A stretch of DNA of 60,691 nucleotides, the filler included, from Chloroflexota bacterium (GTDB lineage Bacteria > Chloroflexota > Chloroflexia > QHBQ01), in NCBI GenBank assembly GCA_043754535.1. It is 2 parts of 2 records of this genome, joined end to end, with 100 filler letters (N's around TTAATTAATTAA, not from the genome) between each part and the next. Parts side by side here need not be neighbours in the genome. Positions count along the whole stretch, not along the records: positions 1 to 30,346 come from JAYUUN010000095.1; 1 more part is not named here. The stretch is one strand, 5' to 3'. Each line of letters starts with the position of its first letter. Position 1 is the stretch's first letter. Position numbers and translations under genes: made by a program. The notes beneath the pieces were generated by a model. The model was not told the DNA's origin, searched no databases, and saw only the letters and a program-made list of their open reading frames with translations. Below, one piece after another: positions 3,562 through 30,446 of this stretch.

Positions 3562-4299
3562 CTACTCAATCGGGGTCTTGTCGATCACGAAGCGGCAGGT
3601 GGGCTGGCCCATCGCCATACATTGCACCTCGTTCACGCGGTAGTTCTTGGTTGTTGCCCAGTGCAGGGTGGCGATCAGCACACCGTTGGCGACGTGGCAG
3701 CACGGGCTGGTCGTCTGGCGGTGCCAACACATCGAGCAGGTCTCGTTCTCGTAGATAAAGCCTTCGCTCGTCTCGCTCACCTTACTGGACTGGTCGCTGA
3801 TCGTGCTGAAGGTCTTGGCGACTACGCCGAGGGCGATCTTGACCTTGATGTTCTGCGGCATCAGGCGCATACCAAGGTTGCCGACCCCAGCAATGGCCGT
3901 GTACTCAGTCAAAGCGCGTTCGAGGCAGACCTTGCCCGCTCGCAGCAGCAGCCCCTTTGAGCCACGCACGCCATAGAAATCCTCAATCGCCTGGTTGATC
4001 GCTGCATAGTTGGCGAAGCTGAACTTCTTCTCCAGGTTGTTTGGTGGGTAGTTGTTGATGAAGCGGCTGAGACCGGCGAGGTTCAGCACGGCGTTGAGGC
4101 CGTTCTTGCCCAACAATTCCTCCATAGCGACGAAGAAGAAGCGACCCATGTTGTTCGGATAGAACAGATTGGTGTCCCCCTGGTGGGGATTAACATAGTG
4201 GCTGTTGCTGATCCCAGCAGAGGGGGTAATGATCCCTCCTGGCCCAACTGCGCCACCCTCAGCCTTGATGCGCTCTGGTTCATTGCGCTCGAATGACAT
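3562..4299 (-). CDS. V4R (4-vinyl reductase) domain protein
   Basis: C-terminal CCHVANG...NEVQCMAMGQPTCRFVI V4R motif. Start moved from 4332 to ATG 4299, which has GGAGGAGG upstream. Confidence 0.85.
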   Translation of the reverse strand: MSFERNEPERIKAEGGAVGPGGIITPSAGISNSHYVNPHQGDTNLFYPNNMGRFFFVAMEELLGKNGLNAVLNLAGLSRFINNYPPNNLEKKFSFANYAAINQAIEDFYGVRGSKGLLLRAGKVCLERALTEYTAIAGVGNLGMRLMPQNIKVKIALGVVAKTFSTISDQSSKVSETSEGFIYENETCSMCWHRQTTSPCCHVANGVLIATLHWATTKNYRVNEVQCMAMGQPTCRFVIDKTPIE

Positions 4300-4364
4300 T
4301 CCTGGCAACCCTCCTCCCGCCGTCGACTGCATTCCCTTGTTCTTTGTGCAGCCCTCTTACGATC

Positions 4365-4375: not shown

Positions 4376-5813
4376 GAACCCCCAGGAAGTCTACAACCTC
4401 GCTGAAGCTCTGAGCCGGGTATACAGGGACGGCCAACTGCTCGTTAATCTGCTCCAGCGTCAACTCGTCCAGCGTACGGTGCGGTTCGGTGATGCTAAAC
4501 ATAGTATCAGGGATGAACAGCGCGTCTAGGCCTGCCGTACCCGCCTCCTGAACGGCGCGCACCACTTGGCCGCCAGTGAGTAGCCCTGCGACGGTCACCT
4601 GTGGCCCGAACAGTTCGTTCTCCAGCACCAGCACGTCAGCTTCTATCCCTGGCAGGCTGTTTAGTTCGGCGGTCAGCTTTTGCAGCAGCGGTCCGATCAT
4701 CGTCGCAGTGACAAGGCGGATGCGCTTGTTACCCCTACCAGCCCAACCCGCGCCCGCAAGGGGGATAGGAGCAGGAGGGTTGGCGGCTAGCTTCTTGTGT
4801 AGGCGGCGGAGAGTGCGGGCGTGGTCGTCTACCAGTTGGCGCACCATGCCCACCCCGTTCTCTAGCTGTACAAAGCCGTCGTAGCTGGCGGCCTTCGGCA
4901 AGTCACTGCCAGTCAGCAGGTACCACTCGTCGGAGAGGTGAACCAGGGTCTTGCCGATCTCCTTCTTTAGCCGCTTCTGCATGGGGGCGACCTGGGCAAT
5001 CACAGCACGGGCTTCCTCTGGAGTGTAGCTCCGCATCACCTCGTTGTAGCGGGTGCGGTATTTGGTCAGCCCCACGGGGACGATGCCGATGCTCTGCACC
5101 GTCGGGTACATGGCAGCCAAGTCGCGCACACTGCGCTCAAGCTGCGTACCATCGTTTACGTCGGGGCAGAGGACGATCTGGGTGTGAGCCTGGATGTCCA
5201 GCGACTCCATCTTGCGTAGCTGCTCAATCGGGTCTGGCACACGGGGGTTGCCCATGATGTAGCGGCGGCACTCCATCTCGGTGGCGTGGACGCTGAAGTA
5301 GAGGGGGGTCAGCCGCTCCTCGTCGATCCGCTGCCAGTCCTCCTCCTTGAGGTTGGTCATCGTCACGAAGTTGCCGTAGAGGAAGCTGTAGCGGTAGTCA
5401 TCATCCTTGATGTAGAGTGAGTGACGGAAGCGGGGAGCCATCTGGTCTACAAAGCAGAACAGGCAATGATTGTTGCAGCGTTTGATGCCGTCGAAGGTAG
5501 GGTCATCGAAGTCGATACCAATATCCTCGGCGTAATCCTTCTGGATAGCAAACTCGCGGGCAATCGTCTCGCCTTGCTTCAGCACCTTGAGGGTCAGGGC
5601 GTTCTCAGTTTGGTAGTAGCGCACCCCTACTATGTCCTTGACGGGTCGCCCGTCAATTGCCAGCAGGCGGTCGCCTGGCGCAATGCCGATGCGCGCCGCT
5701 GGGCTGTCGATTGCTACCAGGCTGATGAAGCCACCGGCCTTGCGCTGGCTCTTGCGTAGGTTCTCTGTTTCCTTCAGTTCAATTTCCAAGACGTGCTTCC
5801 TCTTTTGTAGCAT
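4371..5813 (-). CDS. PDZ + radical SAM-like + DUF512 FeS oxidoreductase (TIGR03279-like)
   Basis: PDZ (DSPAARIGIAPGDRLLAIDG), CNNHCLFC CxxxCxxC motif, KDDDYRYSFLYGNF, QLENGVG and VAGLLTG. The start may be TTG at 5789. Confidence 0.9.
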   Translation of the reverse strand: MLQKRKHVLEIELKETENLRKSQRKAGGFISLVAIDSPAARIGIAPGDRLLAIDGRPVKDIVGVRYYQTENALTLKVLKQGETIAREFAIQKDYAEDIGIDFDDPTFDGIKRCNNHCLFCFVDQMAPRFRHSLYIKDDDYRYSFLYGNFVTMTNLKEEDWQRIDEERLTPLYFSVHATEMECRRYIMGNPRVPDPIEQLRKMESLDIQAHTQIVLCPDVNDGTQLERSVRDLAAMYPTVQSIGIVPVGLTKYRTRYNEVMRSYTPEEARAVIAQVAPMQKRLKKEIGKTLVHLSDEWYLLTGSDLPKAASYDGFVQLENGVGMVRQLVDDHARTLRRLHKKLAANPPAPIPLAGAGWAGRGNKRIRLVTATMIGPLLQKLTAELNSLPGIEADVLVLENELFGPQVTVAGLLTGGQVVRAVQEAGTAGLDALFIPDTMFSITEPHRTLDELTLEQINEQLAVPVYPAQSFSEVVDFLGVL

Positions 5814-5846
5814 TATCCTATAGATAGCAGACAGATAGCAAACTGC

Positions 5847-6608
5847 TCAACCAATCTCAGCGAAGACAGCGAGAACGAGGGTAGCGGCTACGACTGCTGC
5901 CGTCTCTGCGCGCAGAATCCGCCTACCGAGGCTAACAGGTATTATACCAAACGTACCCGCAATTTGCACTTCTTCAGCACTATAACCACCCTCTGGCCCG
6001 ATCAGCAGCGCAACCGAGGGCGGGCTGACGTGTTTGGCTAGATCGTAGTAGGTTTGCCGATGATGGCCCAGCACGTCGCGCAGGCTGGCGGCGCGTTCCT
6101 CCTCCCAGAGGATCAGCGTGAGGTCGGCAGTCGACGCATCTGCGCAGGCGGCAGCGAAGGGGAGCGGCTCGGCGACAGCGGGGACTCGCGCCCGATGCGA
6201 CTGCTCGGCGGCCTCCTGTACGATCCGCTGCCAGCGTTCGCCCTTGCCCTCGGCGGGTCGGGCCACACTCCGTTCGCTGACTGTCGGCACGAAGCGACTG
6301 ACCCCCACTTCGGTACCCTTCTGCAAGACGAAATCGAACCGCTCGCCCTTGAGCAGGCTGGGGTAGAGGCTAAGGCGCAGGGTCGGCTCGGTGTCCAACA
6401 CGTGACCTTGCCCGACCAGCACTGCAACCTCGCGGCGGCTGACTGCCTCCACCACGGCAGGGTACTCGCTACCCAGCCCATCCAGCAGCGCGATTTCGTC
6501 GCCGACGCGCACTCGCAACACACTAACCAACTGGTGAGCGACGGTGGCGGGCAGGTTGACGCGTTGGCCGGGCAGCAGCAAGGTCGGAGGGACGAAGAAG
6601 CGGTTCAT
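5847..6608 (-). CDS. rsmE: 16S rRNA m3U1498 methyltransferase
   Basis: MNRFF, HQLVSVLR, QKGTEVGV, EAAEQS, LIGPEGGYS and LGRRILRAETA SPOUT motifs. Confidence 0.97.
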   Translation of the reverse strand: MNRFFVPPTLLLPGQRVNLPATVAHQLVSVLRVRVGDEIALLDGLGSEYPAVVEAVSRREVAVLVGQGHVLDTEPTLRLSLYPSLLKGERFDFVLQKGTEVGVSRFVPTVSERSVARPAEGKGERWQRIVQEAAEQSHRARVPAVAEPLPFAAACADASTADLTLILWEEERAASLRDVLGHHRQTYYDLAKHVSPPSVALLIGPEGGYSAEEVQIAGTFGIIPVSLGRRILRAETAAVVAATLVLAVFAEIG

Positions 6609-6614
6609 GGCTGC

Positions 6615-6643
6615 ATCTTAGCACAGCAGCACGCTAGTGGCAA
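6615..6643 (-). promoter_or_regulatory. Sigma70-type promoter for rsmE, probably leaderless
   Basis: TTGCCA (6643-6638), 17 bp, TAAGAT (6620-6615) with TG extension. The -10 lies 6 nt before the ATG and there is no SD. Confidence 0.55.
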
Positions 6644-6902
6644 GCACGCCAGTGAGCCGCACAGAATTGCTGGCGGCGGATATTGCATCTTGTGATATCT
6701 GAGGGTGGTCTGCTCGTCGGGCTGGTCGAGGCCTGTTGATTACCAGTCCAGTCCCATAATCTGCGGCATGGTTGCTCTAGGGGTTTGACACAAGGGTACT
6801 ACGTAGTGGGGTAGCCGTCGGCAACTGGTTCAGCCAGCCTTACCGCCAGCTTACCAAAGCATAGCTACTGGGATGTTTATACTATGTTTAGTAGGACACC
6901 TA

Positions 6903-6931
6903 TTGACAAAGCCTGTATGTACCTGTATAAT
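6903..6931 (+). promoter_or_regulatory. Consensus sigma70 promoter upstream of the Rab-like GTPase
   Basis: Perfect TTGACA (6903-6908), 17 bp, TATAAT (6926-6931). Confidence 0.85.
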
Positions 6932-7028
6932 TGTGGCACGATGACAGAAGGCAACGCAGTCAGTTGGGCTGCCCGGCCTTAACGATACCCAGGTAAGAGT
7001 CTGAAGTTGGTTACCAGGGAGAAGGCAT

Positions 7029-7634
7029 ATGGAGACCGTAGGTAACAGGCGAGAACAGACCGGGATGCTACCCCCTATCGAAGACAGCCAACCGTTGCGG
7101 CGGATGGATGAGCAGCCCAGCCACAAGGTGATCCTGGCGGGCGACGGTGGGGTGGGCAAGAGTACGCTGGTACGCCGCATCTGCGACGGTGAGTTCGCTG
7201 CCCTGCGGCGGATGACTATTGGCGTGGACTTCCAGGTTAAGCGGCTGCGGGTGCTTGAGCGTGACATCAAGCTGGTTCTGTGGGATATGGGCGGACAGGA
7301 TCGCTTTGCCTCGATGCGCCCTGGCTTCTATCGTGGAGGACGGGCGGTTGGCCTAGTCTACGATCTGACCAACCGGGCTAGCTTCGACAACCTACCGCTC
7401 TGGCTAAAGGAAGTGGGGGCTAACCTGCCACAAGTGCCAATCGTATTGGTTGGCAACAAGCGCGACCTGGCGGGCGAGACGGGGCGGGCTGTCTCCCACG
7501 AGGAAGCGGTAGCTTTCGCTCTCATGCACGCCCTCCCCTACGGCGAAACCTCCTGTCGCACAGGCGATGGGGTGGATGCCTTCCTTAACAGCCTGGGGCG
7601 GATCGCCATGCTTGGCCTGCGTACCCGCCGCTAA
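7029..7634 (+). CDS. Rab-like small GTPase (Ras superfamily)
   Basis: G1 GDGGVGKST, G2 TIGVDF, G3 WDMGGQ, G4 NKRD, G5 ETSCR. RabF-like motifs IGVDF, KLVLW, RFASMR, FYRGG and LVYDLT. No COR domain and no C-terminal Cys prenylation motif. The start could be a later Met (7069 or 7105). Confidence 0.93.
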   Translation: METVGNRREQTGMLPPIEDSQPLRRMDEQPSHKVILAGDGGVGKSTLVRRICDGEFAALRRMTIGVDFQVKRLRVLERDIKLVLWDMGGQDRFASMRPGFYRGGRAVGLVYDLTNRASFDNLPLWLKEVGANLPQVPIVLVGNKRDLAGETGRAVSHEEAVAFALMHALPYGETSCRTGDGVDAFLNSLGRIAMLGLRTRR

Positions 7635-7682
7635 CCAACCAGTCACCAGATGTTTAACTAGTCTATAGGGAAGGTTGTACTC

Positions 7683-8633
7683 TTGCGGGACTCCTACCTG
7701 GAACTGTTTATCCTTACAATCAATGGCGAGATACTGCTCTACGACTGTGCCAGTATTTGGCACCCCGAACTCGATCCAGCCCTCTTTGCCGCCCGCATTG
7801 CCGCCCTACAAACTACCAGCGAGGAGTATAGCGGCAGGATGGTGGAGAGCGAACGGACAGCAGACAGCCTGATCGTCTACAGCCGTAGCAACGACCTGTT
7901 TGCAGCAGTACGCTTCCTGCCCAACATCCGCTGGGCTAGAGCCAGCAAGCTAACCACCCAGCTACTAGCTACCTACCTCCAGATCAGCGGCACTGGTGGC
8001 CCCATCGACCAGCTACGCCTGCTAGGCGACGTAGACAAGCTGACTACCTCTACGGCACCTCTCAGCGAGTCCGAGTTGAGCGAGGGACTATTGGTCAGTT
8101 TCTGCGCGGCGCAGCCAGCCATCCGCGGTGGGGCGATCCTTTACTGCCCACCAGGTTCGCTCACCTACCGCCACCTTGCCAGCAAAGGTGAACAAACCGA
8201 GACGTTGATCGAGTGGTGGCAGTTGGCTTCACACATCAGCACAGTGCTGGATGAGCAGAGCGAAGTAGCGATCATGCAAGGTTGGCGTAGCGTCTACCTG
8301 GCTATCCCCTTCAATGGTGAAGCGGGCGGCCACTACGAGGGTACTACCCTCTGGTACTTGCGGTTCGACGGCACTAGCCCTGCCGCTGTGGAGCCGGAGG
8401 TAGTCAGCCCCTCCTATGCTGATGCAGCCAACAACGAGTTTCTCAGCGTGGTGGTGCGTTCGGCCCGCCGCAAGCGGCTAAAGGAAAGCGGTGCGCCCAC
8501 ACCAACCAAAGCAGACCGCCAGCCCTTGACCGCAACTCAAACCATAGAGCGCATTGGCGAGGTGCGGCGGGCCATCGGCGAGCAGATGCTGCCTGCCCTC
8601 CACCACCTGCTGGCTGTGCCATCGACCAGCTAG
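7683..8633 (+). CDS. Putative longin-like + roadblock/profilin-like domain protein (paralog A)
   Basis: TTG start giving MRD, as in its paralog. N-terminus LELFILTINGEILLY...DPALFAARIAAL fits the longin beta-beta-alpha-beta3-alpha2 pattern. Second domain begins FCAAQPAIRGGAIL. Fold inferred by eye; ORF itself is solid. Confidence 0.6.
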   Translation: MRDSYLELFILTINGEILLYDCASIWHPELDPALFAARIAALQTTSEEYSGRMVESERTADSLIVYSRSNDLFAAVRFLPNIRWARASKLTTQLLATYLQISGTGGPIDQLRLLGDVDKLTTSTAPLSESELSEGLLVSFCAAQPAIRGGAILYCPPGSLTYRHLASKGEQTETLIEWWQLASHISTVLDEQSEVAIMQGWRSVYLAIPFNGEAGGHYEGTTLWYLRFDGTSPAAVEPEVVSPSYADAANNEFLSVVVRSARRKRLKESGAPTPTKADRQPLTATQTIERIGEVRRAIGEQMLPALHHLLAVPSTS

Positions 8634-8735
8634 CCTCTCTCCTTTCCACCAACATCACGCCTGACAGCGGTGGCACGTAACCAGATCATATTACTCATGA
8701 CTAATGTATTGCCTATCTGCCAGCCTACTAGCCAC

Positions 8736-8772
8736 AATGGGCTATTGAACAGGCCCATTACTGTGCTATAAT
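8736..8772 (+). promoter_or_regulatory. Promoter with overlapping inverted repeat upstream of paralog B
   Basis: TTGAAC (8745-8750), 16 bp, TATAAT (8767-8772) within TGTGCTATAAT. AATGGGC-N10-GCCCATT (8736-8759) brackets the -35. Confidence 0.65.
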
Positions 8773-8821
8773 TGAATGTGGCAACATCATAATTACCGGG
8801 CGGGAATAGGGGAAGAAGACG

Positions 8822-10099
8822 ATGCGCGACCTACTGGAACTCTTTGTCGTTGGTCAGGACGGGCGATTGCTGCTGCACCAGCGGGCTGCACACTGGCAAC
8901 CGCAGGGATTGATGACCAGCCCACGCCGCTTTGCTTCCTACCTGGCGGGTCGTCGCATGATCGAAAGTAGCTACTTCGGTCACACCGCTCACAGTGAAAA
9001 AATCGGTCACTGGCTGCTCACCTTTGCGGTCAGTGAGCAACTGAGCGTCGCCCTGATCTCCGAGGAGTGGGCCGACGAGCGGGCTGCCACCGACCGCGCC
9101 CGACGACTGATCACCACCCTGGAACAGCCAGCATACCTGGCTCGCCTGCTGCACAGCACCGCCGACCCAGAGGAGCGAGCGACCCTGTTGGCGGAGATCA
9201 ACCCCTTCCGCCTGGCGGCTGTCAACCTGGCAGTGGAGGTGCGCATGAGCCTGCAAGAGGTGGTTAGCCGCTTCGCCCGCCAACACCCCTGGCTTGATGG
9301 TGGCTTGCTCGGCTTCAACGGGCAGACCCCTATTGCCCTCAGCGGGCGTAGGCTAGAGGGCTGGGGCGAGTGGCAGCGAGCGATGAACCAACTCTCTGCC
9401 ACCATGCAAGAGCATTGCCAGACAGTGATCGCTACTAGCGCACAATATATCTACTACCTACGCCTATTTGCCTGCCCAAAGGACACCCGTTGGCTTGGCT
9501 TCTGGTCTGCCAACCGTTCACTACTGCCTCCTAGCAGCGAACTGGCGGCTAGCTCAGCCCTGCCACCAGACCCCATTGCCAGCCAGCTAGCAGCGAGTGA
9601 GCCGCAGGTAGAGCCACTAGAGAAGGTCCGCCTGCGCGTTGCCGCCGAACTGGGCATTGCAGCGGACGAACGTAGTTCCGCCTTCCTCAACCGCCTGGTT
9701 GCCGCCGCTGCTGCCCGCCGTGGTAGTCTGCTGCCAACAGATGCGGCCACCCCAGCAGAGAGCATTACGCCCCTGGTAGTCAGTGTGCTATCCAGCAGTC
9801 TAGCTCTCGTTCCAGGTGCTAATGACGAGGAGGAAGTCTACCGGCCACGCGGCAAGCCGAAGCGGGTAGCCACTCGCAATCTTGGCGAGATGAGTGATAG
9901 CATTCGGGCGGCGATTAACGGCCTGGCTGCCGCACCTGACACGCCCAGTAGTAGGCTGAAGGTAGCCACTGCCGTCCAACTGGCACCGCTGCTCCCCGGC
10001 CTGGACGACCACTACGACGCACCAGCGGTGGAGTTCGTTCGCAGCACACTGGAGCGCGAACTGCTGCCCCCGCTCTATGCCATAATTGAGCAGGCATAG
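8822..10099 (+). CDS. Putative longin-like + roadblock/profilin-like domain protein (paralog B)
   Basis: MRDLLELFVVGQDGRLLL aligns with the paralog A N-terminus. FARQHPWLDGGLL aligns with FCAAQPAIRGGAIL. C-terminal VRSTLERELLPPLYAII aligns with VRRAIGEQMLPALHHLL. Long Ala/Pro/Ser insertion before the last helix. Confidence 0.6.
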   Translation: MRDLLELFVVGQDGRLLLHQRAAHWQPQGLMTSPRRFASYLAGRRMIESSYFGHTAHSEKIGHWLLTFAVSEQLSVALISEEWADERAATDRARRLITTLEQPAYLARLLHSTADPEERATLLAEINPFRLAAVNLAVEVRMSLQEVVSRFARQHPWLDGGLLGFNGQTPIALSGRRLEGWGEWQRAMNQLSATMQEHCQTVIATSAQYIYYLRLFACPKDTRWLGFWSANRSLLPPSSELAASSALPPDPIASQLAASEPQVEPLEKVRLRVAAELGIAADERSSAFLNRLVAAAAARRGSLLPTDAATPAESITPLVVSVLSSSLALVPGANDEEEVYRPRGKPKRVATRNLGEMSDSIRAAINGLAAAPDTPSSRLKVATAVQLAPLLPGLDDHYDAPAVEFVRSTLERELLPPLYAIIEQA

Positions 10100-10135
10100 C
10101 CGAAGCAGCAGCCCTGCGAACAGAGCAACCACAAA

Positions 10136-10146
10136 TGTGCTATAAT
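10136..10146 (+). promoter_or_regulatory. Extended -10 promoter (TGTGCTATAAT) upstream of roadblock-V4R
   Basis: Identical 11-mer to 8762-8772 and to the minus-strand copy at 25067-25077. Confidence 0.65.
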
Positions 10147-10254
10147 ACAGTAGCAGGCACTATATTGTAGCCGTGCTGCCCGGCAATGGACGGCAAGCAG
10201 CTTCGGCTGGCTAGCCCAAGTGGACAGGACGCATAGGATGTAGGAGGACACAAG

Positions 10255-10635
10255 GTGGCTGGTGATGATACACTCAGTGAGAAACTACGGAGCATTGTTA
10301 CTCTTAGCGATGGGATCATGGGGGCGGCTCTGGTTACAAGCGATGGCTTCGCCCTTCGCAGCAATCTCCCCGCCGACGTGGATGTGGAGGTGCTGTGCGC
10401 GATCTCTGGTCTGGTGGGTGCCTCCTCGGCCAAAGCCAGTCAGGAACTGCGGCAGGGTGCCATGAGCAAGACGGTGATCGAGTTCGAGGACGGTAAACTG
10501 CTGCTAGAGCAAGGCAACGAATTCGTGCTGATGGTGCTGACCAAAGCCGACACCAACCTCGGCATGGTGCGGCTGGCGATGCGGCGGCTGGTAGTCAGCC
10601 TCAACGAAGTGATCGAGGAGTTGCTCGAGCTATGA
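10255..10635 (+). CDS. Roadblock/LAMTOR2 (MglB-like) domain protein
   Basis: GIMGAALVTSDGFAL, ELRQGAMSKTVIEFEDGKLLL and TNLGMVRLAMRR are the classic Robl_LC7 pattern. AGGAGG RBS with GTG start. Confidence 0.93.
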   Translation: MAGDDTLSEKLRSIVTLSDGIMGAALVTSDGFALRSNLPADVDVEVLCAISGLVGASSAKASQELRQGAMSKTVIEFEDGKLLLEQGNEFVLMVLTKADTNLGMVRLAMRRLVVSLNEVIEELLEL

Positions 10636-12152
10636 GCGAGGCAATCCCACCCCTCTACCACCAGCCTGAAGGCTTCGTCAAAATCGACCCGGTACGTGGG
10701 GTAATGCGCTCCCCCTATGGCTGGCGCATGGTGCTGTTCAGCGAGGATCAGGTCGACTCGCTGCAACGTAGCCTGGAAATGATGACTGGTTCGGGGGCGA
10801 ACATCGTCCTCTACCGCCTGGGCGACAACTTTGGTCGCAAGCAATTCCACGACCTGGACAAGGTGGCCCGCACCAACCCCACTATTGGGGGCGATGCGCC
10901 GCAGCCCCTCAGCGGGCGCGCCCTCGCTTTCGTGATGCAGGCTGGCATTGAGCTAACCACTCTCTTTGGCTGGGGTGTCTTCCAGCTGCTGGGTGAGGTG
11001 CTGGGTAAGGAAACCTTCGTGATGAGCCTGTTTAACTCTGGCTACGCCAGCGTGGTCGGGGTCAAAGGCCAGCCTGCCTGCTACCTCTACGCTGGCTACT
11101 GGGCAGGCTACCTCTCCGCCTACCGCCAATATCGTTACAGCGCACTGGAAACCCGCTGCACCTCGAAGGGCGACGAGCAGTGTCTCTTTATCATCGGCCC
11201 AGAGCAGCGGATCAATACTGCGCGCTTCCTGCTCAAAAAAGGGGCTGACATTAGCAGCATTGAACAAAAATTGGTCAACTTAGGCTGCGGCGGCTGGCTT
11301 CGGGCAGCCCGCTGTTACAAGTACAGGGAGGTTCTCATGGGTATCGAAGGCATGAAGCTAGAAGCAACCCCGCTAGATCAGCAGACCCTGGAGATGCAGG
11401 AGATTTACGCCGAGCAGTCTGCTGAGCGTCAACGAGCCTGGGAGCGGATACAGCAGGACACCCCTGGCGACATGGGTGTGTCGCCCACCCGCGACATTGA
11501 CGTGATGGAGGCGGGCATCCGCAAGCGCGTGCGTTATGACCCCGACAAGTTCATCCGCCTCAACCCAGAGAAGGGCGAAGTCCGCAGCGTCAACGGCTGG
11601 AGGCAGATCATCTACCCAGAGGACTTCATCGTAGCGATCCAGCAGAGCCTGGAGTCGGTGACGGGTGAGGCAGCAGCGATCATCCTCTACCGCTTCGGCG
11701 AAATCTTCGGCTACAAGCAGTGGGCCTGGTCGAACCAGGTGTCTAGTGCCATGTTCAAGGGCAAGACCCTGCGCGACTTCAAGTTCCCCTTTGTGATGAA
11801 GCTAGCCAGTGAGACGATGGCCTTCAGCGGTTGGGGCAACTTCGAGTTGGTCAAGGATTTGGAAGAGAAGCAGGTGTTTACAATCGAACTGGGCGACTCG
11901 GCCTACGCCGGGCTGGTCGGCATCCTCGGCGTACCCGCCTGCCACATCTACGCAGGCTACTGGGCGGGCTACTTTAGCGGCTTCTGGCGTACCCGCCTGG
12001 GCAGCATCGAAACCAAGTGCCTGAGCATGGGCGACACCTACTGCCGCTTCGTGATCTGCTCCAACGACCGCATCAACGCCGCCCGCTTCTGGCATAACAA
12101 AGGCATGAAGTACGAGGAGATTCAGGATCGGCTAGCCTACGCCAAAGAGTAG
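10632..12152 (+). CDS. Tandem V4R domain protein (possibly two genes: 10632-~11283 and 11337-12152)
   Basis: Two homologous units: PACYLYAGYWAG...ETRCTSKGDEQC and PACHIYAGYWAG...ETKCLSMGDTYC. ATGA overlap with the roadblock gene. Internal AGGGAGG RBS and in-frame ATG at 11337. Confidence 0.88.
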   Translation: MSEAIPPLYHQPEGFVKIDPVRGVMRSPYGWRMVLFSEDQVDSLQRSLEMMTGSGANIVLYRLGDNFGRKQFHDLDKVARTNPTIGGDAPQPLSGRALAFVMQAGIELTTLFGWGVFQLLGEVLGKETFVMSLFNSGYASVVGVKGQPACYLYAGYWAGYLSAYRQYRYSALETRCTSKGDEQCLFIIGPEQRINTARFLLKKGADISSIEQKLVNLGCGGWLRAARCYKYREVLMGIEGMKLEATPLDQQTLEMQEIYAEQSAERQRAWERIQQDTPGDMGVSPTRDIDVMEAGIRKRVRYDPDKFIRLNPEKGEVRSVNGWRQIIYPEDFIVAIQQSLESVTGEAAAIILYRFGEIFGYKQWAWSNQVSSAMFKGKTLRDFKFPFVMKLASETMAFSGWGNFELVKDLEEKQVFTIELGDSAYAGLVGILGVPACHIYAGYWAGYFSGFWRTRLGSIETKCLSMGDTYCRFVICSNDRINAARFWHNKGMKYEEIQDRLAYAKE

Positions 12153-12164
12153 GTTGCGCCCGCG

Positions 12165-12200
12165 CTCCACGTCCCCTTCCACGCAGGGAGGGGGCGGGAG
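12165..12200. terminator. GC-rich hairpin between convergent V4R and mreB genes
   Basis: CGTCCCCTTCC-ACGCA-GGGAGGGGGCG stem-loop, extendable by CTCC/GGAG. No clear U-tract. Confidence 0.5.
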
Positions 12201-13211
<1,011 letters not shown>

Positions 13212-13378
13212 CTGCTCAACTCTCCATATGGTCCGCAGCCCACTTGCCAGGCGGCCCAAAGTTTAATTGCGATCATCATGCAGCAAGGACGCGCTCCAGT
13301 TACGTCCCTACCTGGTCAGTACAGCAGAGCGCAGCTAGAGGTTGGTAGCTACATAGTACCGCTTTACTAGCAAGCTGG

Positions 13379-13819
13379 TTAGAGGTTGTTGTTGTCGCTG
13401 CCAGCACTGCTACCCCGCCGGGCGCGGTAGCGGCGGACGACCCGGATTTCGGCCAGGCTGCGGCGCAGGGCGGAAGCGTCGAGTTCTGCCGTGCCGCGCA
13501 CCCCCTCGCGGGTCGTCACCTCGGCCCGTTGGCGAGCGGACTCAGCGGCGGCCAAGTCGATATCCTCGGCCCGCTTGGCAACGTCGGCCAGGATGGTGAC
13601 GCGGTTGTTGCTTACTTCCAGGAAGCCGCCAGAGATCAGTAGGTCGGTCTCCTCGCTTCCCTTCTTGATGCGCGCAGGGCCGGTCGCCAGGATGGTAAAG
13701 AGCGGCGCGTGGTTGGTCAGGATGCCCAGTTCGCCCTCAATACCAGGAGCCACGATTTCGTCTACGTCGTCGCTGAACACCACCCGCTCGGCGGTAACGA
13801 TTTCAAGGTGCAATGCCAT
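13379..13819 (-). CDS. atpC: F1 ATP synthase epsilon subunit
   Basis: LEIVTAER, GELGILTNHAP and ISGGFLEV. Confidence 0.97.
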   Translation of the reverse strand: MALHLEIVTAERVVFSDDVDEIVAPGIEGELGILTNHAPLFTILATGPARIKKGSEETDLLISGGFLEVSNNRVTILADVAKRAEDIDLAAAESARQRAEVTTREGVRGTAELDASALRRSLAEIRVVRRYRARRGSSAGSDNNNL

Positions 13820-13842
13820 GCTTTACTCCTCACTTCGGGGCT

Positions 13843-13853
13843 ATTATATCACA
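13843..13853 (-). promoter_or_regulatory. Internal extended -10 element (TGTGATATAAT) before atpC
   Basis: TGnTATAAT about 24 nt upstream of the atpC ATG and upstream of its GAGGAG RBS. Confidence 0.55.
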
Positions 13854-13910
13854 TCGTGGGCCGAATGTCTGCGCCCAGCTACTTGAGGCTGCGTGTAGCT
13901 GATCAGCACG

Positions 13911-13934
13911 AAAGGGCGGGCAGGCCGCCCACCC
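13911..13934 (-). terminator. Possible weak intrinsic terminator or stabilising hairpin after atpD
   Basis: Minus strand GGGTGGGC-GGCCT-GCCCGCCC followed by TTT. Confidence 0.45.
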
Positions 13935-13980
13935 CTCTGTGCTTGTGCTATGTAGCAATCCGCAGGCAGATGCCGCAGGA

Positions 13981-15495
<1,515 letters not shown>

Positions 15496-30346: not shown

Positions 30347-30446
30347 NNNNNNNNNNNNNNNNNNNNNNNNNNNNNNNNNNNNNNNNNNNNTTAATTAATT
30401 AANNNNNNNNNNNNNNNNNNNNNNNNNNNNNNNNNNNNNNNNNNNN
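30347..30446. other. Artificial contig/scaffold spacer
   Basis: 44 N + TTAATTAATTAA (stops in all six frames) + 44 N, exactly 100 nt. Confidence 0.97.

Follow-up and report, generated by a model that had tools for sequence, protein, structure and literature searches.

We describe here five neighbouring genes of a Chloroflexia bacterium, encoding a Rab-like GTPase, two paralogous proteins (A and B), a Roadblock/LC7 protein and a tandem V4R protein. We propose, with a probability of roughly one half, that they form a cytoplasmic small-GTPase signalling switch which a single genus of Chloroflexia has built by combining two bacterial modules. Most likely this is a home-grown bacterial signalling unit made from the parts of TRAPP and not a true TRAPP, and in our best reading the cluster is TRAPP-like in its parts list only. 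This reading starts from genes, selection, motifs and neighbourhood counts, which were observed directly, and from a modelled fold for the first domain of A. The cluster lies in a stretch of 60,691 nucleotides (the window, to which all coordinates refer) and has the following features.

6903..6931, + strand: promoter-like site of sigma70 type, 12/12 consensus, upstream of the GTPase gene
7029..7634, + strand: small GTPase gene, 201 aa, Rab-like (Rup family), G1-G5 intact, DxxGQ
7683..8633, + strand: gene for protein A, 316 aa
8745..8772, + strand: promoter-like site with extended -10, upstream of B; the extended -10 is kept in the congener
8822..10099, + strand: gene for protein B, 425 aa, paralogue of A
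10136..10146, + strand: extended -10 promoter-like motif upstream of the roadblock gene, an 11-mer identical to that of B
10255..10635, + strand: Roadblock/LC7 gene, 126 aa, with a 4-base overlap with the V4R start
10632..12152, + strand: tandem V4R gene, 506 aa
12164..12201, no strand assigned: GC-rich hairpin where the V4R and mreB genes converge, likely a shared terminator

The ORF coordinates and Pfam agree with the preliminary description of five co-oriented ORFs between rsmE (5847-6608, - strand) and mreB (12201-13259, - strand). The perfect sigma70 promoter that it placed ahead of them is borne out by the 12/12 site, one of 97 such sites in the genome, with both hexamers conserved in a congener. 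The 11-mer ahead of the roadblock gene, also conserved there, has 104 genome copies. Given that the gaps between A and B (188 bp) and between B and the roadblock gene (155 bp) each contain a promoter-like site of their own, kept in the congener, the cluster need not be one operon. The terminal hairpin stands as a predicted structure (-33.3 kcal/mol, z -2.8, equalled by 1 of 200 shuffles) but is absent from the terminator scan output. No Rfam matches were found in 1-30346.

All five genes are intact and under purifying selection relative to the congener, which has the same gene order at a dS of 0.15-0.32. The dN/dS values range from 0 to 0.19 (0.08 for the GTPase, 0.07-0.18 for A, 0.19 for B and 0.08 for the V4R protein), and the roadblock gene shows 25 synonymous and no amino-acid changes. 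Codon style is host-like, as previously claimed, with a GC3 of 0.67-0.78 in the five genes and 0.72-0.79 in the flanking genes. The cluster is likewise free of any spacer, the N run at the contig join (30347-30446) being distant from it. An assembly or binning artefact, in which archaeal or eukaryotic DNA was joined to a bacterial contig, may come to mind for a metagenome assembly of 132 contigs, but we give it practically no chance. Single contigs cover 4500-14500 at flat depth in three of four sequencing runs, from three studies, two of these runs being possible sources of the same DNA and the fourth giving scattered cover only. With the congener in the same order and another assembly of the five-gene block (L017), the artefact is already refuted, and no chimeric join was seen.

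The GTPase matches Ras (PF00071, E 2.7e-40) and falls within the Rup definition, having a single G domain of fewer than 240 aa, eukaryote-like G1-G5 and DxxG in G3. Its alignments to Rab26 and Rab2A share IGVDF, KLxxW, RFxS, F/YYRG and LVYD stretches, which we take to be the RabF1-F5 motifs (names as in PMC4915359); the RabF1-F5-like switch motifs expected of a eukaryotic Rab are thus present. According to PMC4316618, MglA family members have TVPGQ or GTPGQ in G3, whereas this GTPase has WDMGGQ, so that its description as Rab-like and non-MglA holds. In trees it falls outside the Group 1 Rup clade, although joining the two was not rejected (AU test p 0.052), nor was grouping it with viral Rabs (p 0.129).

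An arginine in switch I (R60 in the GTPase of the cluster), three places before the G2 threonine (RxxT), is found in 120/120 protein matches and in 76 of 79 metagenome loci, the remaining three being unparsed. The same place is held by Y in all 22 other Chloroflexota Rup genes and by F, Y or H in five viral Rabs. Combined with DxxGQ, this invariant arginine suggests, from sequence, that the GTPase clade has a built-in (intrinsic) arginine finger. The C-terminus, LGLRTRR, lacks a prenylation cysteine, and none of the 79 clade loci has a cysteine within the last five residues, though some ends are possibly cut by contig ends. As searches for a membrane anchor, a prenylation site or a transmembrane segment all came up empty, the control of membrane organisation proposed earlier is unsupported.

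In the wider Chloroflexota clade of this GTPase, a co-oriented, unannotated partner gene adjoins it in 56 of 79 loci (54 in an HMM recount), and roadblock or V4R genes occur in none of the 79. Nine clade loci lack the partner despite room on both sides, and in genome G089 the partner is present with no GTPase next to it. The partner family has no Pfam or PDB sequence match. A and B align in register with its C-terminal domain (hhalign E 0.008, a score reached by 1 of 100 column shuffles), a weak homology at a probability of 4.8, and the partner-profile HMM gave no significant match to either protein. Against a Group 1 Rup membrane protein, A/B gave an alignment E of 0.02.

A and B are 26% identical over 220 aa (E 5e-12) and have no Pfam family and no PDB sequence match. 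A consists of an N-terminal domain (about 1-115), a second, putative alpha/beta domain (about 130-230), a linker and a terminal helix; the linker of B is longer and changes faster, and B differs from its counterpart in the congener at 15 of 236 positions in the N-terminal part and 28 of 189 in the rest. An AF2 model of A 1-104, built on an alignment borrowed from the weakly homologous partner gene, has a pLDDT of about 70 and the order strand-strand-helix-three strands-helix. It best matches Ego3/Gse1 (Z 12.4, rmsd 2.6, 99 aligned), followed by MglB (Z 12.0), the Vamp7 longin (Z 11.2) and TRAPP 3cue_A (Z 9.3); roadblock, longin and profilin chains score Z 8-12.4, with roadblocks at the top. 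The first C-terminal helix is confident, helix 107-117 falls below pLDDT 50, and A and B have no room for an N-terminal helix, their open frames extending only 7 and 4 codons upstream. This borrowed-alignment model supports a longin/roadblock fold, putatively in longin order, for the first domain of A. Thus the longin-like pair proposed earlier is upheld for A in modelled form; B, folded without an alignment, gave a pLDDT of 38.7. The second domain of A, below pLDDT 50, was hardly probed by fold searches, and a roadblock profile made from the same genome gave no match to it (hhalign E 0.58). In the ESM Atlas a Fuz_longin_1 cluster lies at 0.83, at the level of a lead; a search of the own genome for Fuz_longin_1 gave nothing. 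Predicting a complex of A 1-232, B 1-236 and the GTPase gave 0.01 against a mark of 0.32, which speaks neither for nor against binding.

The roadblock and tandem V4R assignments proved sound. The roadblock protein matches Robl_LC7 (E 1.7e-10; PF03259 at 40.9 bits with a cut-off of 23), and the V4R protein has two V4R matches (E 9.1e-25), both halves, which are 41% identical and separated by a 96-aa linker, passing the PF02830 cut-off. Both halves carry the Cys/Glu/Cys/Cys set of the MopR/PoxR sensors, presumably a zinc site, and C150, E173, C176 and C184 are invariant. In another Chloroflexia V4R family a roadblock gene adjoins V4R in 18 of 25 loci, 6 of the 25 have an MglA-type GTPase no more than 1.5 kb away, and a roadblock-V4R-DUF4388-MglA cassette was seen.

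Among close relatives, the GTPase, A/B and the tandem V4R are restricted to one genus; GTPases 76% and 57% identical to that of the cluster exist (P0005 and P0006). There is a synteny break at the five-gene site: all five genes are missing there in three sister-genus genomes, and other genes occupy the slot in relatives. A/B were present in 1 of 301 genomes of the phylum (their own), and a profile search of 1.84 billion representatives found only their own pair; two further matches were rejected as repeat artefacts. In word searches, neither B nor the full tandem V4R had relatives beyond the genus. Of the refutation set out earlier, a gene set kept together in no other genome, half applies: the congener keeps the order, but the five-gene set was not found beyond the one genus. 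In the literature searched, mostly outside subscription journals, neither the cluster nor the Chloroflexota GTPase-partner pair is reported. Members of the GTPase clade may be among the unclassified Rup of the supplementary tables of PMC4316618, and a preprint (10.64898/2026.10.19.760177) mentions unpublished links of profilin-longin-like domains to GTPases.

In the switch that we propose, the Rab-like GTPase, A and B would be the core. A and B would pair through their N-terminal longin-fold domains, and the resulting platform of two subunits would contact the GTPase at its switch regions and set its nucleotide state. Since the GTPase has both a catalytic glutamine and the invariant switch-I arginine, this platform need not give a catalytic residue and is probably allosteric, placing the GTPase's own arginine in the manner of MglB, promoting exchange, or both. 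On the input side, the roadblock and tandem V4R proteins, produced as a coupled pair, would sense a small hydrophobic or redox ligand and feed the same switch, like the role that roadblock-V4R pairs apparently have next to MglA-type GTPases elsewhere in Chloroflexia. What we infer here comprises each of the binding steps, which way the regulation runs, and both ligand and output. The earlier notion of a small-GTPase switch with likely regulators is retained as a putative one, judged from sequence. Counted against the proposal are the one-genus range, the 0/79 for roadblock or V4R, the three promoter-like sites and the genome's complement of roadblock, V4R and MglA genes, as well as the weak homology of A/B to the partner, the pLDDT of 39 for B, the nine partnerless loci and G089.

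The genes might instead be two or three unrelated units standing side by side, the GTPase with A (and B) as one module and roadblock-V4R as an independent sensor for the MglA system or another, which we consider doubtful. The separate promoter-like sites ahead of B and the roadblock gene, the clade loci devoid of roadblock and V4R, the occupation of the slot by other genes and a GTPase-free roadblock-V4R-roadblock cassette in a sister-genus genome (G002) all favour this. Since the genome encodes its own MglA along with 4 V4R genes and 7 roadblock genes that pass the Pfam cut-off, the roadblock-V4R pair could serve another GTPase. However, the confinement of GTPase, A/B and tandem V4R to one genus is consistent with joint arrival, and roadblock-V4R pairs elsewhere often accompany a small GTPase.

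Readings closer to TRAPP fare worse. It is improbable that the proteins are a TRAPP-like machine put together independently by a bacterium, in which an A/B longin heterodimer, with a pseudo-dimeric V4R and a roadblock bound to it, controls a Rab-like GTPase with a G-alpha-style built-in arginine finger, and quite improbable that they form a true TRAPP-like complex, in which an A/B longin heterodimer flanked by V4R halves is the exchange factor. Bet5 lacks a second domain such as A and B carry, which speaks against the latter, even though two putative longin-order paralogues, two V4R halves and a Rab-like GTPase equal the TRAPP core count (PMC10933270) and V4R and Bet3 are homologous (PMC2253512). 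Moreover, the solved relatives of the V4R halves by sequence are MopR (best, E 6e-5), PoxR and MJ1460, with no Bet3/TRAPPC3 chain among the matches listed; the gene coupled to V4R is the roadblock and not A/B; and lipid anchors and membrane segments are lacking. The idea of a TRAPP counterpart is hence unsupported, the V4R halves being sensor-type by sequence, the roadblock-V4R pair an existing Chloroflexia cassette and the closest kin of the GTPase bacterial, not Asgard. An Asgard origin by horizontal transfer of the block, or of A/B and roadblock, is highly improbable. In the ESM Atlas, B and A lie nearest to clusters of Asgard hypothetical proteins (0.93 and 0.91, respectively), a lead only and in itself no sign of transfer, and the best solved relatives of the roadblock protein (7f8m, 9jue, 7yh1) are titled Asgard roadblocks. 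Yet Chloroflexota-type relatives match the GTPase at 144-177 bits and the Thorarchaeota Rab 7ezb at 110 (with slightly different query lengths), and the GTPase nests among the former (support 92/85, in trees without Asgard sequences), roadblock relatives at 37% identity exist in the same bacterial order, and base composition fits the host.

Longin-Rab pairing is commonly regarded as typical of eukaryotes and Asgard archaea, and in Asgard genomes the partners are difficult to assign to one another since they rarely lie side by side (PMC10933270). Here, a bacterial Rab-like clade has a candidate regulator gene next to it at dozens of loci, joined in one genus by roadblock and V4R. The invariant switch-I arginine with DxxGQ points to a catalytic arrangement absent from the prokaryotic types in the sections of PMC4316618 consulted. 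If the TRAPP-like machine were real, a Rab-longin-V4R partnership would either predate the Asgard-eukaryote lineage or be convergent with it; as the five-gene set has so narrow a range, its bearing on the origin of TRAPP is limited. The cluster is a small test case for the control of such GTP switches, and since all its proteins are small and soluble, GEF or GAP activity is directly testable.

The TRAPP core is the GEF for Ypt1/Rab1, and G-alpha subunits combine a switch-I RxxT arginine and the DxxGQ glutamine in one chain. The GTPase shares RxxT and DxxGQ with G-alpha but has no helical domain and is otherwise Rab-like. In the TRAPP core the Bet5/Trs23 longin dimer is flanked by Bet3-family subunits (PMC10933270). 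The cluster has three fold classes in common with that core (Rab-like GTPase, putative longin-order pair, V4R/Bet3 pair), but no V4R-Bet3 sequence link was found, the Rab prenylation site is absent, the roadblock is extra and the assembly is a candidate one. Asgard archaea have the same domain classes and a Rab-like GTPase without C-terminal cysteines (PMC10933270, PMC4915359). In MK-D1, GTPase genes do not generally share operons with roadblock, longin or TRAPPC3/V4R partners (PMC10933270), whereas here the genes sit side by side in a bacterium and the GTPase belongs to a bacterial clade. As in MglA-MglB and roadblock-V4R-DUF4388-MglA systems, a small GTPase occurs with a roadblock gene and V4R adjoins the roadblock. 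An intrinsic arginine finger is known from Group 1 MglA (PMC4316618), where the arginine is adjacent to the threonine and not three places before it; here the GTPase is Rab-like with DxxGQ, DUF4388 is missing, two putative longin-order proteins are added and V4R is doubled. With Group 1 Rup the cluster shares a single-domain Rab/Ras-like GTPase in Chloroflexota and a neighbour domain weakly alignable to A/B. Group 1 Rup lack the G3 glutamine, and next to them lie genes for a coiled-coil protein, for a membrane protein and for a kinase or cyclase (PMC4316618); the window GTPase, in contrast, keeps this glutamine, has the switch-I arginine and lacks such neighbours. In the same paper, the Rup survey of Wuichet and Sogaard-Andersen places 0/121 Rup sequences near mglB/roadblock; the 79 clade loci conform to this lack of coupling within four genes, whereas in the cluster described here a roadblock gene is the third gene downstream of the GTPase.

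The five open reading frames, promoter-like site and hairpin of the preliminary description lie at the positions it assigned to them. They are listed with dN/dS values against the congener, the second genome of the same genus, which indicate purifying selection on every cluster gene.

6903-6931, promoter-like site
7029-7634, +, GTPase, dN/dS 0.08
7683-8633, +, gene A, dN/dS 0.07 and 0.18 (two parts)
8822-10099, +, gene B, dN/dS 0.19
10255-10635, +, roadblock, dN/dS 0
10632-12152, +, tandem V4R, dN/dS 0.08
12164-12201, hairpin
12201-13259, -, flanking mreB, dN/dS 0.007

Intergenic gaps of 188 and 155 bp within the cluster, absent from that description, each carry an extended -10 motif kept in the congener, so that the layout becomes three units, GTPase-A, B and roadblock-V4R, each of which may have a promoter of its own. 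The cluster lies inside contig C95 (assembly 3.87 Mb, completeness 88.9%, contamination 0.7%), and positions 4500-14500 are spanned by single contigs at flat depth in three of four runs from three studies, which speaks against a chimeric join. Gene order in the congener is identical, with a break between two contigs falling inside gene A. Farther along the window, 30347-30446 is the run of N between C95 and C97, and the genes flanking it are not neighbours.

The GTPase is indeed Rab-like, on the evidence of its Pfam family and of relatives with solved structures (Rab26, 114 bits; a Thorarchaeota Rab, 110 bits). Among the best 120 of 473 related proteins, identities are 44-57% save for one at 76% and the protein itself, and all eight that carry a taxon name are from Anaerolineae or Chloroflexi. 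The matches at 76% and 57% (P0005, P0006) both sit on short contigs. A 37-row tree, rooted with viral Rabs and built without Asgard or cellular eukaryote sequences, places the GTPase inside the clade of these relatives (support 92/85), and Group 1 Rup genes, the branch with coiled-coil, membrane and kinase/cyclase neighbours, form a separate group (100/99); AU tests on this set did not reject alternative placements of the window GTPase. DxxGQ is kept in all of these best 120 proteins, its count among metagenome loci being imposed by the search pattern. An arginine three places N-terminal of the G2 threonine is found in the same 120/120 and in 76 of 79 metagenome loci of the clade; tyrosine occupies the corresponding switch-I position in 22/22 other Chloroflexota Rup genes. 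RxxT has the spacing of the G-alpha arginine finger, and we infer from these sequences that the clade GTPases carry a built-in finger. The finger of MglA adjoins the threonine, according to PMC4316618. The window GTPase has no C-terminal cysteine; it is a Rup family member and not a Group 1, MglA or prenylated Rab protein. All four family f6 genomes of the relatives sample hold Rab-like GTPases (L003-L006) that are stand-alone and long-branched, read DIAGE in G3 and have a shortened switch II.

An adjacent, co-oriented gene, here termed the partner, is present at 56 of the 79 clade loci, several of which are near-duplicates; 14 of the 23 partnerless loci have a flank shorter than about 1 kb, whereas nine have room. 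It encodes a soluble protein with a Pro-rich linker, a helical hairpin and a 125-residue C-terminal longin/roadblock-like domain, and has no Pfam or PDB sequence match. The partner occurs in 3/401 genomes sampled, adjoining the GTPase in two. Chloroflexota examples of the two-gene module, with an RxxT + DxxGQ GTPase, are:

L043:2449-3177
G083:C173:2890-3813
series L021-L098

At G089:C184:43685-44440 the partner gene has no adjoining GTPase, and no clade GTPase is among the matches listed for that genome at E 1e-30. This unannotated GTPase-partner clade and its arginine are the main interest of the analysis, and are open to direct test.

Pfam has no family for A and B, which are paralogues, and three sequence searches returned no relatives beyond the genus. 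Starting at the first strand, they align weakly to the partner C-terminal domain (hhalign E 0.008, probability 4.8; equal score in 1/100 column shuffles). Given the partner rows as its alignment, AF2 yields for A 1-104 a model (pLDDT ~70) of two strands, a helix, three strands and a helix, followed by a low-confidence helix. Fold searches with this model returned roadblocks, longins and profilins, including:

Gse1/Ego3, Z 12.4
MglB, Z 12.0
Vamp7 longin, Z 11.2
TRAPP 3cue_A, Z 9.3

The longin/roadblock fold claimed earlier is thereby upheld for the N-terminal domain of A, with Z up to 12.4 on an alignment borrowed from the partner; the model is partly circular, in that what it shows is this fold for the partner family and a fit of A to it. 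Strand and helix orders of both domain types are given in PMC3747258. When aligned to the model, longins match from their first residues and roadblocks minus their first helix, and the open frames of A and B leave no space for a helix at the N-terminus, which favours the longin order. The second domain of A (helix-strand-strand-helix-three strands, pLDDT <50) could, as a guess, be roadblock-like with a long insert; A and B both terminate in a similar helix. The Group 1 Rup membrane protein aligns in one register to A/B (E 0.02) and to the partner (E 0.003), so bacterial Rab-like GTPases appear often to have longin-like partners, which makes A and B less surprising.

The V4R halves, 41% identical with the Cys/Glu set kept, match MopR, PoxR and MJ1460. 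Window-type V4R is strong only in the two genomes of this genus and weak in three more of 301 class genomes. Roadblock relatives at 34-37%, from the same bacterial order, adjoin V4R genes. A different V4R family, reached via a sister-genus cassette, occurs in 26/251 class genomes; a roadblock adjoins it at 18 of 25 loci examined, and an MglA-type GTPase lies within 1.5 kb at six (for example roadblock-V4R-DUF4388-MglA), so these three components already travel together in the class. Such cassettes, after which DUF4388 and an MglA-type GTPase often come next, are seen in several Chloroflexia families (L191:1023-3436; L184-L208), and the sister genus has roadblock-V4R-roadblock at G002:C237:4526-5910. 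In the window, a stand-alone V4R gene with a weak BchJ match (3562-4332, -) lies 2.7 kb upstream; being 82% identical in the sister genus, it belongs to the older rsmE block, outside the cluster. The source genome has further GTPase/roadblock-related sites (C103:87778-89714, C32:8897-14999, C85:12040-13479, C42:9002-13860), among them a low-complexity protein of 1,500 residues followed by a roadblock; it also has an MglA-type GTPase with a roadblock and, by eye, several DUF4388-like proteins.

We put at about 0.5 the reading in which A and B would pair into a two-subunit longin platform acting allosterically on a GTPase that brings its own arginine and glutamine, and roadblock-V4R would serve as a ligand-sensing input to the switch. 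Ranked second, and rather doubtful, is that independent units merely stand side by side. The bearing evidence is from range: the gene neighbourhood is conserved in the congener and, in these samples, no further, with roadblock or V4R at 0/79 clade loci and other genes in the cluster slot of three sister-genus genomes (83-84% complete), all of which conserve the atp-mreB block and two the rsmE block. Only the congener, among 61 relatives, has a close GTPase. As far as the samples show, this arrangement is confined to the genus and sits where synteny breaks.

Below this stand a true TRAPP-like complex, which we consider unlikely, and transfer from Asgard archaea, more improbable still. Bearing on the latter, the best solved relatives of the window roadblock are Asgard, and ESM Atlas places Asgard hypothetical proteins top for B (0.93) and A (0.91), with a longin cluster at 0.83, as leads only. 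As to the suggested polarity or membrane role, no transmembrane segment was found (top 19-residue hydropathy 1.7), and the mreB neighbour, an atp-block gene whose transcription runs towards the cluster, is therefore no evidence for polarity.

The cluster is an exception to a published survey, which counts 0/121 Rup genes near a roadblock (PMC4316618). For TRAPP it is, from genes and models, a candidate member only; in its working it is likened most to MglA-MglB and the eukaryotic longin platforms.
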